64,000 nt of DNA from Promethearchaeota archaeon (GTDB taxonomy: Archaea; Asgardarchaeota; Lokiarchaeia; Sigyniarchaeales; SOKP01), in assembly GCA_016839555.1 (NCBI GenBank), contig JAEOUA010000008.1:262372-326371 (forward strand). The letters run 5' to 3'. Under the pieces are notes generated by a model. The model had not been told where the DNA came from. It did not search any database and saw only the letters and a list, made by a program, of their open reading frames with translations. The first letter of the stretch is position 1; every line of letters begins with the position of its first letter. The position numbers and the translations under genes were made by a program. Positions 31,444 to 38,622 of the stretch are shown in pieces.

Positions 31444-32175
31444 TTATTTACTTTTTAAGATGAGTCTTTTAAACCAATCTGGGAGTAAAAATCCTAAATA
31501 AAATTCAACTGCACTAGAGATCAATAAAATACGAATCAATACTAAAAAAACAGGCCCTAAATCGATACCTGCGTCAAAAAGTACTCCTATTAAGAAAGAA
31601 ATAAAAGCTAATAAAAGCAACTTCCCTTTTAATCTAATTTCCGGATCATCCGATTTTAGCGAATCGCGGGCAAATAAAAATCCAAGAATAACCACAGAAA
31701 AGTTTAGAAATAATAAATATATTAGAACAAAACTTGTATGCTCAGTGCTAAAAACTCCACTTCTGTACCCTATTAGGGAAAGATCTGTGAATAAAAAATA
31801 GAGAAAAAATATCTCAAAAGCAGCTCCAATAATTGCATAAATAATAACTAAGACTTTTTGCTTATCCCTAAAAATCAGTTCCGTAATACCCCAAATATAA
31901 ATAACGCTAATGAATGGTATAAAGAAGTTTCCAAGAAAAAAATATAATTCATCGCTAAATGATTGCCCAGTTAGGATAACATACGTAAAATTGAAACTAC
32001 TAGGATACCATGGACATGCTAATCCCATCAATGCAATCCCTATTAGAAGAAGTGCTTTATGTTTATATTTAAAATACTTTATTAAAATTAATAAACCACT
32101 AATTGTGAATATCACAATTAAAAAAAGACTCATAATTCCTTGTATAAATTCCTCAGGCGCAAGAATTATTACCAT
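31444..32175 (-). CDS. Seven-TM membrane protein, paralog A
   Basis: About seven TM helices; shares PW.SS, GNFFIP and SL...DP...LKGK.L..AFISF with the neighbouring gene. Confidence 0.75.
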   Translation of the reverse strand: MVIILAPEEFIQGIMSLFLIVIFTISGLLILIKYFKYKHKALLLIGIALMGLACPWYPSSFNFTYVILTGQSFSDELYFFLGNFFIPFISVIYIWGITELIFRDKQKVLVIIYAIIGAAFEIFFLYFLFTDLSLIGYRSGVFSTEHTSFVLIYLLFLNFSVVILGFLFARDSLKSDDPEIRLKGKLLLLAFISFLIGVLFDAGIDLGPVFLVLIRILLISSAVEFYLGFLLPDWFKRLILKSK

Positions 32176-32235: not shown

Positions 32236-32946
32236 TTATTTTTTTAGAATTAAATTCTCTATAGCGGGGGGAAGTATATAACCTATATAAAAAAATATGG
32301 CACTCAAAACGAGCACTAATCGAGTAATTGGATTGGTTATAATGATATCAAACGCAGTTCCCAATAAAAAGGAAATAAAAGCAACAATTAAAAATTTGCC
32401 TTTTAATTTGACGCGAGGATCATTTGTTCTTAAAGAATTGATTGCGAAAATAATCCCTGTAAGAAATAATATAATTAAGGAAATGAATAAATAAATAATT
32501 ACCAATACTGAAAAATTTACATCAACAGGACCTTGCATTTTTCCAAGAAGCGTATAATCCGTAATTAGAAAATATAAAAAGAAGATCTCATAAATAACTG
32601 AGCAAATACTAAATACAATCGTAAAAATATGCTTTTTTCCAAGATTTGTTAGATCTTCCATGGCTAGAAGCCAAAATAAAATAAATATCGGTATAAAAAA
32701 ATTACCTATAAAAAGATAGGCTTGATCACTTAAACCAATTCCATTAAAAAGTGCAACTATGAAAGAAACTGAGGATGACCACCATGGTTCACTTAATCCA
32801 ATCCATGCTAGGCCAACATAGAGATAATTTAGATCCTCAAATTTTTTATACTTAATCATGATTAAAAATCCTACTATAACACAAATAATAACAAAAATAA
32901 GGCTAGAACTCCCATTTATGATTATTATCGGGTCTAACAAATTCAT
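32236..32946 (-). CDS. Seven-TM membrane protein, paralog B
   Basis: Tandem paralog of 31444-32175. Confidence 0.75.
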   Translation of the reverse strand: MNLLDPIIIINGSSSLIFVIICVIVGFLIMIKYKKFEDLNYLYVGLAWIGLSEPWWSSSVSFIVALFNGIGLSDQAYLFIGNFFIPIFILFWLLAMEDLTNLGKKHIFTIVFSICSVIYEIFFLYFLITDYTLLGKMQGPVDVNFSVLVIIYLFISLIILFLTGIIFAINSLRTNDPRVKLKGKFLIVAFISFLLGTAFDIIITNPITRLVLVLSAIFFYIGYILPPAIENLILKK

Positions 32947-33035: not shown

Positions 33036-34298
33036 TTATTTCTTAAGGTTCAAAACTAAATTTTTAAGAACCTCAAATTTTTCTTCTGATGCCCAAATTA
33101 AATAAATAACATTGTCTACTACTATTGCGATTTCTTTAATAACTAAAATCCAATCCTCCCCAAGCTGTTTTGCTGTAGGACTTCCTTTCTTAAATTTTAT
33201 GAAAATATTTGCTCCATAATAATTCTGAATTTCTTCTTCCTCAAATTTAGTATATTCATCAAGATTTCCAATATCTTTTATTTTCTTCTTTTGCTTTAAA
33301 TTTTTTATCTGTTCTCTAATTTTATCATATACCAGAGCTAGTTTATCTTTAGCTCGAATTTCATCTGCAATTTTTTCTTCATACTCGAAAATAACGATAC
33401 CAAAATCTTTTTCAAGTCCCATAAAGCCTAATACGTCAATATCAAACACATCTTTTCCAAAAGATTGTATCTGATCATAATACTGGGATTTTTCCAATCC
33501 TTCAATAAAATATTCTTCTATTAAAAATTGAAAGCTTTTTAAAATTTTGATTTCTTCTTCTTTTTCTTCTATAATTTTATTGACTAATTTATTAATCGGA
33601 CGTGCAATATATATTTGTGTACCTTTAGGGGTTTTGGATCCCTTTTCAACCCAATTACTCTTTATAAGCCTATCTATTATACGATAAATGGTTGTACGCT
33701 TGATATCTAATTGTTTATTGAGATTTCCCACAATATTTCCGTGAGAACCTTTCTCTAATAAAGTTAGATAAACTTTACTTTCTTCCAGGGTTAATCCAAA
33801 TTTTTGAAGTCCTAATCGTCTTAAAATTCCCATGGTATCAAAGAGAAATTTTGGAGATATCTTTTGAAATTTCGTATCAGGTGAAAATATTATATTTGGG
33901 GCAATGAAAGGTTCACGAGAACTCATAGAACTTAAAGAGCGACCTAAAGCTGTGAAAATTTTCATTAACTCCATAAAAACTTCTCCTTCCTTACAGATTA
34001 TTTTACAAATTATCCCCATTCCCTGAACTCTATAACCAATAAGCCAATGATTTCTGCCTTTTGCTGCAAATCTTTCAGGCGTATTATTGAAAATTCTGTA
34101 ATTTCCTTCCCCAATAGATAATAATTTTGGCTCTTTTTTTCCCCATTTAGAAAATATTTCTCGTAATTCTTTTTCGTTCGTGATATCCCATGTCTTAGTT
34201 TGATATGAAATTTTGTTTTCATTCTCAAATATTGCAAGTGATATTATATTCGGGTTATCTTTTATTAAATCACTTATGACAGATTCATAACCCGTCAA
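33036..34298 (-). CDS. Profilin-like domain fused to a TrmB-type winged HTH transcription regulator
   Basis: N-terminal ~125 aa resemble Asgard profilins (LAIFENENKISYQTKTWDI, LSIGEGNYRIFNNTPER); central GLTLEESKVYLTLL...IKRTTIYRIIDRLIKSNWVEK...YIARP is a TrmB HTH. Confidence 0.75.
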   Translation of the reverse strand: MTGYESVISDLIKDNPNIISLAIFENENKISYQTKTWDITNEKELREIFSKWGKKEPKLLSIGEGNYRIFNNTPERFAAKGRNHWLIGYRVQGMGIICKIICKEGEVFMELMKIFTALGRSLSSMSSREPFIAPNIIFSPDTKFQKISPKFLFDTMGILRRLGLQKFGLTLEESKVYLTLLEKGSHGNIVGNLNKQLDIKRTTIYRIIDRLIKSNWVEKGSKTPKGTQIYIARPINKLVNKIIEEKEEEIKILKSFQFLIEEYFIEGLEKSQYYDQIQSFGKDVFDIDVLGFMGLEKDFGIVIFEYEEKIADEIRAKDKLALVYDKIREQIKNLKQKKKIKDIGNLDEYTKFEEEEIQNYYGANIFIKFKKGSPTAKQLGEDWILVIKEIAIVVDNVIYLIWASEEKFEVLKNLVLNLKK

Positions 34299-34377: not shown

Positions 34378-34572
34378 TTAATATTTTTCTTTAAGTTTTT
34401 TTTTTAATTCATCTAAAAGTGTTTTAAAATATTTTTTTGTTTTCATATCTAATAAATACGAAAAGGAATTATTCTGTTTAATAGAACTAAGTTCTCCTTT
34501 AAATTTTATTATTCCTTCGTCTAACACTATACAAGGAATTCCTTTTAGTTCTTTTATTATTAAAATGCTCAT
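34378..34572 (-). CDS. Small protein, paralog 2 (GIPCIVLDE motif)
   Basis: 64 aa; shares GIPCIVLDE and an L.ELKK helix with the adjacent ORF; 6-bp gap. Confidence 0.75.
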   Translation of the reverse strand: MSILIIKELKGIPCIVLDEGIIKFKGELSSIKQNNSFSYLLDMKTKKYFKTLLDELKKKLKEKY

Positions 34573-34578
34573 TCCCTC

Positions 34579-34782
34579 TTATTTCTCCTTATTATTATTA
34601 TCATCATCAAACCTTTTTTTCAACTCATTTAACACATCTTTTAAATTTTTTAAGTCATTTGAATTTTGAAAAAACATAAAATTATTTTTTTCCTTCCAAT
34701 CTTGAAATTTTGAAAATTCTTTATCTATTTCTTCATCTAAAACAATACACGGAATACCTTCTACATATTTTATTCTTATCAT
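34579..34782 (-). CDS. Small protein, paralog 1 (GIPCIVLDE motif)
   Basis: 67 aa; AGAGGT ribosome-binding site; paralogous to 34378-34572. Confidence 0.75.
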   Translation of the reverse strand: MIRIKYVEGIPCIVLDEEIDKEFSKFQDWKEKNNFMFFQNSNDLKNLKDVLNELKKRFDDDNNNKEK

Positions 34783-34900
34783 TTTAGACCTCTTTTTGGT
34801 ATTTATCCTACTTTCAGATTTTTTATTTTGAATTAATAGATCTTATAAAAAAAAAGAATTTTGAATTAGATTTTTTCCTTAAAAACATGTGCTAAAGCGC

Positions 34901-36040
34901 TTAGAAGCATCTGTGAATGACTTGCGGCCCCAATTCTTTATATTCGCGTCTGGTAATCCACATACGATGGAAAGTCTTTAAAGAACTCAAGATTGAACCG
35001 CCAATCCACACAGAATACATTCTTTCAGGTGGAGCGATGATTTTTACATCGACGGATTCTGGAATTTGCTCTCTTATTTCCTTAGTCAATCGCTCTTTAA
35101 TCCCAGGGAACATGGTAGAACCTCCAGATAACACAATATTACTGTAGAGATCTCTCCGTAAATCGACATCACACTCATCTATCGCATTTACCACTAAATC
35201 GTCCATCGGTGGTAATTCTTTCCCAATAACAGAAGGATTAAAGAGACACTCTGGGGCTAAAAATCGCTCAACTCCCACTTTAACGATCTCACCATCTGGA
35301 AGCATATATGCTTTTTCCATTCCCGCTACTTTTTTTGAAAGTATCATTTCTTTTTCAGGATCTATTGCGATATAGCAGAGTTTCTCCTTAATATCGCGAA
35401 CTATCTCGACTTCCGCCGTTGTGATCATTGGGATACCATTTTGCCTCAAAAGTCGCTTTAAATATTGTGTTACATCTCGTCCTGCAAGATCCACTCGTTC
35501 AATTGCATGGCCTAGAGCAAATCCTTCAAAGATCGGAACAATATGAGACACTCCATCCCCTATATCAATAACAACACCAGTTGCACGACCAGAAGCATAT
35601 AAAGAGAGAACCGCTTGGGTTGCAACATAAAGTGCGGGTACATTAAAGGTCTCAAACATAATTTCCGTCATTTTCTCTCTATTAAATCGAGGATTTAAAG
35701 GCGCTTCGGTTAATAGAATTGGATGCTCAGAAGGATCAACCCTTAAATCTGTATAGAAGGTATAATGCCAAATCCGCTCCATCGCAGGCCAATCGTTAAT
35801 AGTTCCATGAGTAATTGGGAAGTTTAAATGCATAACACCTTTTAATTTCATCGCATCATCTCCTATATACCATTCTCTGCCATAATCTTGTAACTCTGGC
35901 ATAATATTCCCATATTTAGGTCGCCCAGTAACTGTAGGAAACACGGAACGGGGTTGATCTTCACCAGCAAAACCGTTTTTAGTAATCCCTGTCCCATTGT
36001 CCAAAACAATTGCTTTATTAAAAATCTCATTTTCAGCCAT
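34901..36040 (-). CDS. Asgard actin (Lokiactin family)
   Basis: DNGTG, FAGED.PRSVFP, LLTEAPLNP, FETFNVPA, QAVLSLYASGR, GDGVSH, LAGRD, IVRDIKE, LPDG, NIVLSGGSTMFPG, SVWIGGSIL, C-terminal HRCF. Confidence 0.97.
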   Translation of the reverse strand: MAENEIFNKAIVLDNGTGITKNGFAGEDQPRSVFPTVTGRPKYGNIMPELQDYGREWYIGDDAMKLKGVMHLNFPITHGTINDWPAMERIWHYTFYTDLRVDPSEHPILLTEAPLNPRFNREKMTEIMFETFNVPALYVATQAVLSLYASGRATGVVIDIGDGVSHIVPIFEGFALGHAIERVDLAGRDVTQYLKRLLRQNGIPMITTAEVEIVRDIKEKLCYIAIDPEKEMILSKKVAGMEKAYMLPDGEIVKVGVERFLAPECLFNPSVIGKELPPMDDLVVNAIDECDVDLRRDLYSNIVLSGGSTMFPGIKERLTKEIREQIPESVDVKIIAPPERMYSVWIGGSILSSLKTFHRMWITRREYKELGPQVIHRCF

Positions 36041-36224: not shown

Positions 36225-36279
36225 TATTTAAATGTTGTCACGATATGGTGACAATATAGTCTGGATATGGTGACAATAT
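36225..36279 (-). promoter_or_regulatory. Actin promoter: TATA box plus tandem operator
   Basis: TTTAAATA on minus strand (36232-36225); palindrome TTGTCAC-N6-GTGACAA (36235-36254); perfect 16-bp direct repeat GATATGGTGACAATAT at 36242 and 36264. Confidence 0.65.
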
Positions 36280-36679: not shown

Positions 36680-37111
36680 ATGGAAATTATCCAGATAGTT
36701 GTTGATGCTAATGTTATTACAAAATGGTTTATTGAAGAGAAAAACTCAGATAAGGCAAATAAAATAAAGGAGAAATATATTAATGGAGAAATTGATATAT
36801 TAGTATCACCATTATTATTTTTTGAAGTTCTTAATGCATTAAAATATAGTCAATTATTTGATAAAACAGAACTTAATTCTGTGGGAGAGAGCATAGAAAA
36901 TTATGGATTTACAATTGTTACTATTCAAAAGGAGATTCGCAAACAAATGATTCACATTGCTGTTAATCATGAATTGTCAATATATGACGCATCTTATGTA
37001 GCTTTGTGTTTAGAAAATAATTGCATCTTATATACAGCAGATAATAGGATTATTGAAAAGCTTCCAAATAAATTAAAACAATACGTAAAAAATTTGAGTG
37101 AATTTAAATAA
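36680..37111 (+). CDS. vapC: PIN-domain toxin (VapC)
   Basis: VVDANV, EVLNAL, LSIYDASYV, LYTAD. Confidence 0.9.
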   Translation: MEIIQIVVDANVITKWFIEEKNSDKANKIKEKYINGEIDILVSPLLFFEVLNALKYSQLFDKTELNSVGESIENYGFTIVTIQKEIRKQMIHIAVNHELSIYDASYVALCLENNCILYTADNRIIEKLPNKLKQYVKNLSEFK

Positions 37112-37368: not shown

Positions 37369-38622
37369 ATGAAGATGTCTTCTAATAAAGATTCCATACA
37401 ATACCATTTATATATTTCCTTAATCGTGCTGGTAATTATAATTCTTTATATCTTATTTACAAGTATCTTATTTCCATCTGGTTTTAGAAAATATATCGTA
37501 TATATCCAAATAGGTCCCTTTTCTCCGTATTTTTTTACTATTGCCGCAATTTTTGCCATATTTGGAACTATGATATTATATCATAGTATAAAATTTGAAC
37601 TGACCTCCCTTACCTTTATCATATGCGCGTTATTTTCCTCTGCTCTTTCTTATTTCTTTGGGTGGTTGAATTGGAATCCTGCTGGAGAAGTACCTAAAAC
37701 AGGTTTATATGAGGCTCAAATTTTATTATCTTCTATTGCTCTTTTCTTTCTTTTTCTTCATTTCGAGCTAAATGAAAGAGAATCTCCCAGAGCGTGGTTA
37801 ACAAGTATTATATCCATTTGCCTCTTTCCCTTGTCTTTTAAAAATATATTTTCAATATTAAGTGGCATTTATGAATTTAATACAACCTTTGAATATTTTC
37901 TCGGGATCTTAGTTCAAATTGGAGCAATAGTAATATTTATAGCAAATTTCGTTATTGCTTTGAGAATATCGAAAGCTGTTTTTGTTCGCAACGAAGAATT
38001 AAGAAATCTCGGAGGAATCCAATTTGCAGGGTTATTTTTTCTATTCTTTCATGTGTTTTTCGAATTTAGTGAAGGGCTTATTAAAATTATAAATCCTAAA
38101 TTTTCGGTTTTTAACACACCGATATTAGTTATAGCGATGCTTTTAATTAGCATACCATACTATAAAAAACCAGAGGTTTTATCATTTGTCTCCCCTAATG
38201 TTAAAGCGATTGGACTAGTAGATATAAATGGAATCACCCATTATTTTAAGGCAACCTCAGAAGAATTTGAGGAAAGGCGTAATATCTCTGAAGAATTATT
38301 TGGAGGCCTTACTGTAGCATTCCAGAGTGTAGGAAAGGAAGTAGCGCAAGCCAAAAAGGGGGTTGATTCTTTGAAATTTGGGGATCGTGCGATTATTATT
38401 GAATATCTTAACCCCTTTTATTTTGTGGTAATAGCAGAACGGAGTTCCTATTTTCTTCATCTCGAAATGAAACAATATTTAAAAGATTTAAAAACTTATT
38501 ATAAAGAATTTCCAGAATATGGTGAAGTAATCTCGGAGGATATTATTAAACAATTAAATGAAAAGTTTTATCCAATGCCACCATATTATTTTGCAACAGA
38601 ATCCAAAAATGAAAAAACATGA
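37369..38622 (+). CDS. Multi-pass membrane protein with C-terminal longin/roadblock-like domain
   Basis: About 8 TM helices, then AIGLVDINGIT...ELFGGLTVAFQSVGKEV...SLKFGDRAIIIE. Confidence 0.65.
   Translation: MKMSSNKDSIQYHLYISLIVLVIIILYILFTSILFPSGFRKYIVYIQIGPFSPYFFTIAAIFAIFGTMILYHSIKFELTSLTFIICALFSSALSYFFGWLNWNPAGEVPKTGLYEAQILLSSIALFFLFLHFELNERESPRAWLTSIISICLFPLSFKNIFSILSGIYEFNTTFEYFLGILVQIGAIVIFIANFVIALRISKAVFVRNEELRNLGGIQFAGLFFLFFHVFFEFSEGLIKIINPKFSVFNTPILVIAMLLISIPYYKKPEVLSFVSPNVKAIGLVDINGITHYFKATSEEFEERRNISEELFGGLTVAFQSVGKEVAQAKKGVDSLKFGDRAIIIEYLNPFYFVVIAERSSYFLHLEMKQYLKDLKTYYKEFPEYGEVISEDIIKQLNEKFYPMPPYYFATESKNEKT

Follow-up and report, generated by a model that had tools for sequence, protein, structure and literature searches.

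The protein described here joins a profilin domain to a TrmB-type winged helix-turn-helix (wHTH) and is encoded downstream of a second, faster-evolving Lokiactin-type gene that carries an operator-like palindrome at its TATA box. We tentatively propose, with somewhat less than even confidence in the chain as a whole, that it is an actin-responsive local regulator of this spare actin gene, with the profilin domain as its input. Known profilins are free-standing regulators of the cytoskeleton, and known TrmB regulators are sugar sensors. The analysis started from a window, that is, the whole 64,000-nt stretch of DNA studied, from Promethearchaeota archaeon (Asgardarchaeota; Lokiarchaeia; Sigyniarchaeales; SOKP01), assembly GCA_016839555.1, JAEOUA010000008.1, positions 262,372-326,371 of the forward strand. 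In window coordinates, the gene and its parts are as follows.

33036..34298, minus strand: the whole profilin-TrmB fusion gene, an intact ORF of 420 aa with a TTG start and 114 full-length homologues.
33921..34298, minus strand: profilin domain, residues 1-126 (PDB profile matches, AF2 topology, Foldseek, predicted actin complex).
33822..33920, minus strand: disordered linker, residues about 127-159 (pLDDT <50).
33600..33821, minus strand: TrmB-type wHTH, residues 160-233 (PF01978; invariant recognition helix).
33510..33596, minus strand: long helix after the wHTH, residues 235-263 (AF2), presumed to be a dimerisation coiled coil, as in TrmB proteins.
33036..33509, minus strand: orphan C-terminal alpha/beta domain, residues 264-420, plus the stop codon (pTM 0.71 when folded alone).

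The 114 relatives of the fusion protein came from a search of 5.8 billion proteins; nearly all are 400-440 aa long and align over their full length, and they are annotated only as TrmB or HTH proteins. Conservation extends across all three domains in an alignment of 32 sequences, with a mean column identity of 38% in the N-domain vs 55% in the C-domain, the N-domain being the least conserved and fastest evolving of the three. In Pfam, TrmB PF01978 was the sole match of the 420-aa protein, and NCBIfam held no family for the whole fusion protein or for the small ORFs and the long profilin described below.

The initial annotation had read a profilin pattern into residues ~1-125, and this was borne out by both profiles and structure comparison. 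Residues 5-87 alone give E 3.6e-5 against Loki profilin-1 (5yed/5yee) and 9.3e-5 against Loki profilin-2 (5zzb). With a profile of residues 1-126 built from 32 sequences, the PDB matches were Loki profilin-1 (3.8e-15), Loki profilin-2 (2.4e-14), Odin profilin (5zza; 4.4e-11 across the entire domain) and Thor profilin 7pbh (3.2e-8), and the next match after the profilins was noise (E 0.07). The N-domain modelled by AF2 (pLDDT about 74-89) has the order helix, two strands, helix, five strands, helix, which is the profilin topology. In a Foldseek comparison with the PDB, ranks 1-30 were all profilins and the five best matches were Asgard profilins (TM by target 0.70-0.75; Asgard rmsd 2.5-3.8), while the first Roadblock appeared at rank 31 with an rmsd of 6.1. 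A better match to a roadblock, longin or GAF fold, which had been named as the outcome that would speak against the assignment, was thus not found: profilins outrank all other folds. As the sequence profiles on their own establish homology, the profilin call stands, and the N-domain of the fusion is confirmed as a true profilin homologue.

It is a diverged one. Pfam Profilin PF00235 found no match in residues 1-130 at E up to 10, but the canonical 133-aa profilin of the window genome, at 24.1 bits, also falls short of the model's own cut-off of 25, and a long profilin scores 17.2, so that the scores fall along a graded chain of divergence from canonical profilin through long profilin to the fusion N-domain. 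The motifs NW(D/N)IS and NT.ER are common to the N-domain and the stand-alone Asgard profilins. The latter are free-standing proteins of about 120-145 aa, whereas here the profilin is followed by a disordered linker, a wHTH and an orphan domain.

The second part of the protein is of TrmB type. The TrmB HTH initially placed at residues ~160-245 corresponds to PF01978 at residues 164-225 (E 3.9e-11; 43.1 bits, curated cut-off 25.6), and its recognition helix is strongly conserved among 32 homologues, K200, R201, Y205, I207 and R210 being invariant and T202 and R206 nearly so. The AF2 helix that follows (residues 235-263) drops below pLDDT 50 from residue 255 onward. The order thus predicted, a PF01978 wHTH and then a long helix, is also that of the TrmB regulators TrmB, TrmBL1/Tgr and TrmBL2, and Foldseek gave a weak overall architecture match to TrmBL2. 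Relative to these regulators the N-terminal profilin module is an addition. The sugar-binding effector domain of the TrmB family is absent from the C-terminal part, so only the DNA-binding domain is held in common: TrmB-family regulators combine a sugar-binding effector domain with a sugar regulon, whereas the fusion has an orphan C-domain and one candidate site per genome.

The C-terminal ~150 aa, left without an assignment at the outset, stay so: about 155 aa show no convincing fold or sequence match. Foldseek against the PDB returned nothing at E 0.001 or better, and the best score of a VIA-wide fold search, Z 7.2, lies within that search's stated background; the weak fold likenesses (Z <=7.2) are to Mog1/PsbP/DcrB-like sandwiches. 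An Atlas search by shape gave the protein's own family plus weak DcrB/DUF4946 resemblances only, and by features nothing usable. No match was obtained for the C-domain by sequence profile in the PDB or for residues 262-420 in Pfam. An exhaustive profile search of 1.84 billion cluster representatives yielded 35 relatives, all of which are fusions of the same type, forms of ~283-302 aa without the profilin domain, or fragments. The orphan C-domain is private to the profilin-TrmB regulator family.

To trace the fusion we scored its parts with separate models. The model of profilin plus linker gave 123-145 bits for long profilins of ~204 aa from the same archaeal family, 70 bits for the 285-aa long profilin of the window genome and 61 bits for the canonical profilin, and the model of wHTH plus C-domain gave 221 bits for a 291-aa regulator that lacks the N-terminal part. 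Judged by these scores, the fusion seems to have arisen by joining two kinds of gene that already resided in the same family. The closest relatives of the N-terminal part are the long profilins (~204 aa; 285 aa in the window genome, L006:1501-2358), of which the papers searched gave no description; they end in a helical domain of ~50 aa, where the fusion instead has the wHTH and the C-domain. A conserved linker motif of the SSK.PY...LGK type, with P130 and Y131 nearly invariant, is common to the fusion and the ~204-aa long profilins, and a linker-only model matched long profilins marginally (E about 1e-4 in a search of six proteins). By sequence, then, the long profilins were probably the donor of the fused profilin domain. 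The relatives on the other side (~283-302 aa; e.g. L068:497-1372, P0115) have a wHTH and a C-domain homologous to those of the fusion, lack the profilin domain and the linker, and differ at several positions of the recognition helix; the single one inspected is not adjacent to an actin gene.

Full-length copies of the fusion occur in 45 of the 135 genomes of one Asgard family, spread over four genera (5/7, 16/54, 21/42 and 3/10 genomes). Two further genomes hold pseudogene remnants with stop codons, and one genome has two cassettes, as we call the linked actin and fusion genes. Two phylum-wide searches found the fusion in none of 266 genomes from more than 30 other Asgard families, true 1.4-Mb Odin genomes included. 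An Asgard-wide cassette had been suggested by NCBI labels of Thor, Odin, Hod and Hermod on MAG records, and the genome-based searches led us to reject it. The oddly labelled proteins are 63-83% identical to one another, and their nearest genome matches (70%) are in genus g2 of the window organism's own family. The cassette belongs to a single Asgard family and does not extend across the phylum.

Upstream of the fusion gene and on the same strand lie two small paralogous ORFs and the actin gene.

34901..36040, minus strand: cassette actin, a second Lokiactin-type paralogue of 379 aa (PF00022, E 3e-129).
34847..34855, minus strand: T9 run, 45 nt past the actin stop; it may act as an archaeal terminator or attenuator.
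34579..34782, minus strand: small ORF copy 1, 67 aa, of the G-I-P-C family, an optional part of the cassette.
34378..34572, minus strand: small ORF copy 2, 64 aa, of the family with the conserved G-I-P-C motif.

Cross-reading of two separate genome searches placed an actin gene directly upstream, on the same strand, at 43 of the 46 fusion loci, with a truncated actin at one more. Of 25 cassettes, 11 include the small G-I-P-C ORF, of which the window has two copies; in many other cassettes the regulator gene begins only 32-92 nt after actin. Downstream of the actin stop, 13 of the 25 have a run of 9-14 T. Since archaeal transcription terminates at oligo-T, such a run may attenuate read-through into the regulator gene. 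A scan with bacterial-type promoter and terminator models gave 21 sites vs 20.1 expected, bacterial models being uninformative for an archaeon. The locus is chromosomal and its flanks are partly conserved (HD-domain and YdjM genes). No conserved gene follows the regulator: the 236-aa membrane protein in the window is unrelated to the 182-aa protein found there in genus g2.

We considered whether the neighbouring gene was the main Lokiactin of the organism and rejected this, given a second and more canonical copy on contig C1 and the actin tree. The housekeeping Lokiactin-type gene on C1 is 83% identical to the cassette actin, is nearer to the solved Asgard actin 9wc4 (633 vs 572 bits) and is also nearer to eukaryotic actins. 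Across the 135 genomes of the family, those with the fusion have two Lokiactin-type actins and those without it have one; the housekeeping copy, common to all of them, is nearly invariant (about 721 bits). In a quick IQ-TREE ML tree that took its outgroups from four further Asgard families, all 24 cassette actins formed one clade (SH-aLRT 100), nested within the housekeeping actins of the family and with much longer branches. Of 379 alignment columns, 182 vary among cassette actins vs 36 among housekeeping copies, and only four differences between the two are fixed, all of them conservative. This shows that Lokiactin was duplicated in one Loki-type family, giving a near-invariant housekeeping gene and a faster-evolving spare copy.

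The promoter of the spare copy contains the following elements.

36225..36232, minus strand: TATA-like box TTTAAATA of the cassette-actin promoter.
36236..36253, no strand assigned: candidate operator, the palindrome TGTCAC-N6-GTGACA, 4 nt upstream of the TATA box.
36264..36278, minus strand: additional half-site, a second copy of TATTGTCACCATATC, 22 nt upstream of the palindrome.

In the 3.74-Mb window genome the sequence GTCAC-N6-GTGAC has a single copy vs 0.055 expected, and the promoter palindrome remained the sole site in the genome when one mismatch was allowed in its 12 specified bases; no other member of the profilin-TrmB regulator family was found in that genome. Five other cassette-bearing genomes (four genera, 3.9-4.7 Mb) likewise have the palindrome once each, at the cassette promoter, and five cassette-less genomes have 0, 0, 0, 0 and 1 copies. 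Among 26 cassette loci, 22 have a perfect palindrome upstream of actin and three have a variant at that position: one differs by a single base, one has a symmetric GTCGC-N6-GCGAC and one an everted pair. The sole locus without a site has a truncated actin. The palindrome occurred in none of 19 housekeeping and none of four outgroup actin promoters. The loci with a perfect palindrome comprise 21 distinct promoters; all 21 keep the same arms and the T and A that flank them, with a freely varying spacer. The half-site proximal to the TATA box lies 4-5 nt from it in 21/21. This half-site is an arm of the palindrome in 19 promoters; the remaining two have the palindrome 15 nt away and a third half-site in the proximal position. 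The palindrome stands alone in 13 of the 21; in the remaining eight it is joined by one or two further half-sites, spaced at roughly 11 or 22 nt.

The position so occupied is the one where the BRE usually lies in archaeal promoters. A core TCAC...GTGA beside BRE/TATA is also a feature of TrmB operators, and the palindrome, a candidate operator of the fusion regulator, resembles the TrmBL1/Tgr operator TGM, TATCAC-N5-GTGATA (PMC4158304). A TrmBL1/Tgr site upstream of BRE/TATA activates and one downstream represses (PMC4158304). Because the palindrome falls on the usual place of the BRE itself, this position rule gives no sign of the regulation here.

To ask whether the profilin domain might bind actin, its complex with the neighbouring actin was predicted, the inputs being the profilin-domain alignment and an alignment of six cassette actins. 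All three runs gave an ipSAE of 0.83 vs 0.01 for the best control; solved complexes attain this mark in 58 of 80 cases, mismatched pairs in 2 of 110. Similar complexes have been solved (5yee, 5zza, 5zzb), however, and the pass may reflect the predictor's knowledge of them; it speaks for likeness, not for binding by this copy. At least 98% of contacts agreed, and partner pLDDT was at least 84. The predicted interface involves residues 148-178 and 354-379 of actin, which form the barbed-end groove, and residues 68-91 and 105-123 of the profilin domain, on the face made by beta4-6 and the C-helix. As modelled, the profilin domain would dock onto the barbed-end groove of actin. Cassette and housekeeping actin do not differ over the surface predicted to contact profilin, so a sensor of this kind could not tell the two apart and would respond to total actin.

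Conservation of actin-contact residues had been proposed as a further check on the profilin assignment, and here the expectation failed. Conservation at the predicted contacts does not exceed that elsewhere in the domain (mean entropy 1.94 vs 1.81; 77% of random position sets are as low), and the window protein deviates at three conserved core positions, N71, Y89 and V91. This, together with the rank of the N-domain as the least conserved of the three and its lack of a Pfam Profilin match, counts against actin sensing. The lack of preferential conservation at the contacts and of a Pfam Profilin match also favours an alternative that we consider unlikely, though it fares best among those weighed: the protein is a local regulator of the spare actin, but its profilin-derived domain no longer binds actin and instead senses a phosphoinositide-type lipid, a proline-rich or other protein partner, or serves in oligomerisation. 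The fast evolution of the N-domain fits this, the long profilin from which it would derive is itself uncharacterised, and the operator evidence supports regulation while being silent on the input. Against it, so strict a physical linkage to actin would have to be a coincidence, the core motif common to actin-binding Asgard profilins (Q/N71, T73, E75, R/K120) is retained, and the complex prediction passes its controls, though possibly through knowledge of the solved complexes.

The arrangement of the locus also recalls type II partition. ParMRC and the cassette each comprise a site, an actin-fold ATPase and a DNA-binding adaptor; ParR engages the pocket of ParM equivalent to the barbed-end groove, and by analogy the same would be expected of the cassette regulator. 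The protein might accordingly be a ParR-like adaptor that tethers the palindrome, as a centromere-like site, to the barbed ends of cassette-actin filaments, forming a type-II-partition-like module for DNA positioning or segregation that also autoregulates its own operon. The order of site, actin and adaptor, which mirrors parC-parM-parR, the single site per genome, the accessory, patchily distributed and faster-evolving actin copy, the predicted place of profilin on actin and the extra half-sites in 8 of the 21 promoters all agree with such a module. We nevertheless think it improbable. The centromere of ParMRC consists of multiple iterated repeats upstream of the operon, whereas the cassette has mostly a single palindrome fixed beside a TATA box, with no iteron array in 13 of the 21 promoters, and the rigid 4-5 nt spacing points to promoter control. 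The cassette is carried by the chromosome, with partly conserved flanks, rather than by a plasmid, its actin is a near-canonical Lokiactin with only four fixed, conservative differences from the housekeeping copy, and its DNA-binding domain folds as a wHTH where ParR has a ribbon-helix-helix. Still more doubtful is that the palindrome is another factor's site or an actin promoter element, with the fusion regulating other targets and adjacency reflecting co-inheritance: this would suit the oligo-T run that often parts the regulator gene from actin and means that co-transcription is not required, but the palindrome co-occurs with the fusion (one copy in one of five cassette-less genomes), is of the TrmB operator type, and has no second perfect or one-mismatch counterpart in the genome to serve as an alternative target.

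We return to the actin-responsive regulator as the preferred explanation. A one-component regulator that takes its input through the profilin domain would fit all the findings, namely the linkage to actin, the unique operator-like palindrome and the predicted canonical interface. A dimer formed through the wHTH and the coiled coil would sit on the palindrome where the BRE normally lies and would control access of TBP and TFB. Monomeric actin would be bound by the profilin domain at the barbed-end groove, and its occupancy would change either DNA binding or contact with the transcription machinery. The output of cassette actin might then follow the free-actin pool, closing a feedback loop, and the orphan C-domain may receive a second signal or mediate oligomerisation. 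That the cassette is such an actin-monomer-sensing feedback loop in a prokaryote, acting through a single operator at the TATA box and amounting to an independent archaeal invention like MRTF-SRF, is a more doubtful proposition than the regulator itself. A spare actin with its own sensor is puzzling, and this counts against the feedback reading.

In animals, the transcription regulator MRTF/MAL-SRF senses G-actin, and the output of cytoskeletal genes tracks the G-actin pool. The proposed loop would resemble it in logic only, not by ancestry: MRTF-SRF is built from RPEL motifs and a MADS box, whereas the cassette uses a profilin and a wHTH and involves no nucleus or shuttling. To our knowledge, Asgard profilins have appeared in print only as free-standing proteins, and our literature searches turned up neither the fusion nor the cassette nor the second actin. 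The system is small and fully defined, with one protein, one 18-bp site and one actin, and can therefore be tested directly in vitro. If the proposal is true, it would be the first case known to us of a prokaryote that couples gene expression to the state of its actin cytoskeleton, and MRTF-SRF-like logic would have been invented independently in close relatives of the eukaryotic ancestor. The duplication of Lokiactin into a housekeeping gene and a regulated spare copy would bear on the origin of actin-isoform regulation.

The closest relatives of the regulator's fused profilin domain are long profilins of the same archaeal family, for which we found no description in the literature searched. 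In these proteins a profilin domain is joined by an SSK.PY...LGK linker to a conserved C-terminal helical domain of ~50 aa (...YYLQQN...). Their length is ~204 aa in most of the family's genomes; the window's own genome encodes a version of 285 aa with a charged insert. The copies are located as follows:

L006:1501-2358 (contig C1), long profilin of the window's own genome
L064:430-1044, long profilin
L066:288-896, long profilin
L067:406-1020, long profilin

The other half of the fusion also has relatives, as there are regulators of ~283-302 aa that contain the wHTH and the orphan C-domain as in the fusion, without the profilin domain (L068:497-1372 in genome G040; G058:C12; G071:C24; G104:C1; and P0115 in locus L010). 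Several positions of their recognition helix differ from those of the fusion, and in the single neighborhood inspected, that of L010, the N-less regulator had no adjoining actin. A further relative, P0121 (517 aa), has its profilin domain split by a glutamine- and lysine-rich coiled-coil insertion of ~100 aa, which lies after the short helix and before the third strand; the protein matches the N-domain profile with an hhalign probability of 99.3.

Variants of the candidate operator occur in two of the cassettes described here. The second cassette of genome G308 (L030, G308:C16) has an everted GTGAC-N5-GTCAC adjoining the TATA box, and the operator at L031 (G077:C46) shows a symmetric arm change, GTCGC-N6-GCGAC, along with a GTGAC half-site. 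The recognition helix of the G077 regulator appears unchanged despite the variant arms.

Some cassettes encode, between actin and regulator, a family of small proteins of 61-77 aa; it was detected in only 11 of the 25 cassettes and occurs twice in the window. Its members share an invariant G11 and C14 inside an [IL]DGIPCI-type motif and end in a lysine-rich amphipathic helix; the family had no match in Pfam or NCBIfam. LKDV, the WH2 motif of Promethearchaeota according to a 2025 preprint, is present in one copy and is not conserved across the family. These ORFs and the genes flanking the cassette in the window are:

34378-34572 and 34579-34782, minus strand, small ORF family
L001:5729-5923, L004:2969-3202, L011:4567-4752 and L012:3373-3573, small ORF family at other loci
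31444-32175 and 32236-32946, minus strand, immediately downstream of the regulator, a pair of paralogous multi-pass membrane proteins of 243 and 236 aa
36430-36660 and 36680-37111, plus strand, a small ORF and, after it, an ORF of 143 aa, divergent, upstream of the cassette promoter
37369-38622, plus strand, 417-aa protein predicted to have about eight membrane helices, with a soluble region of ~110 aa at the C-terminus

Neither the two paralogous membrane proteins nor the 417-aa protein matched Pfam. The position downstream of the regulator is occupied by a 235-aa gene in a congeneric genome (L011) and by an unrelated 182-aa gene in genus g2. Judged by eye, the divergent ORFs look like a candidate antitoxin and PIN-domain (VapC-like) toxin pair, and the C-terminal strand-helix pattern of the 417-aa protein recalls roadblock or longin domains.

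Four cassette regulators come from MAG records labelled Thor-, Odin-, Hod- and Hermodarchaeota (L001, L004, L009 and L012; GCA_048883265.1, GCA_048885285.1, GCA_048886305.1 and GCA_048886105.1). They are 63-83% identical to one another, and their nearest genome matches belong to a single genus within the window's own family. The labels of these contigs or bins look unreliable. Two genomes hold regulator C-domain fragments, each broken by a stop codon:

G295:C4:86019-86372, C-domain fragment (TAG)
G049:C1:80511-80819, C-domain fragment (TAA)

These look like remnants of lost cassettes, a reading that fits the patchy distribution of the cassette within genera.
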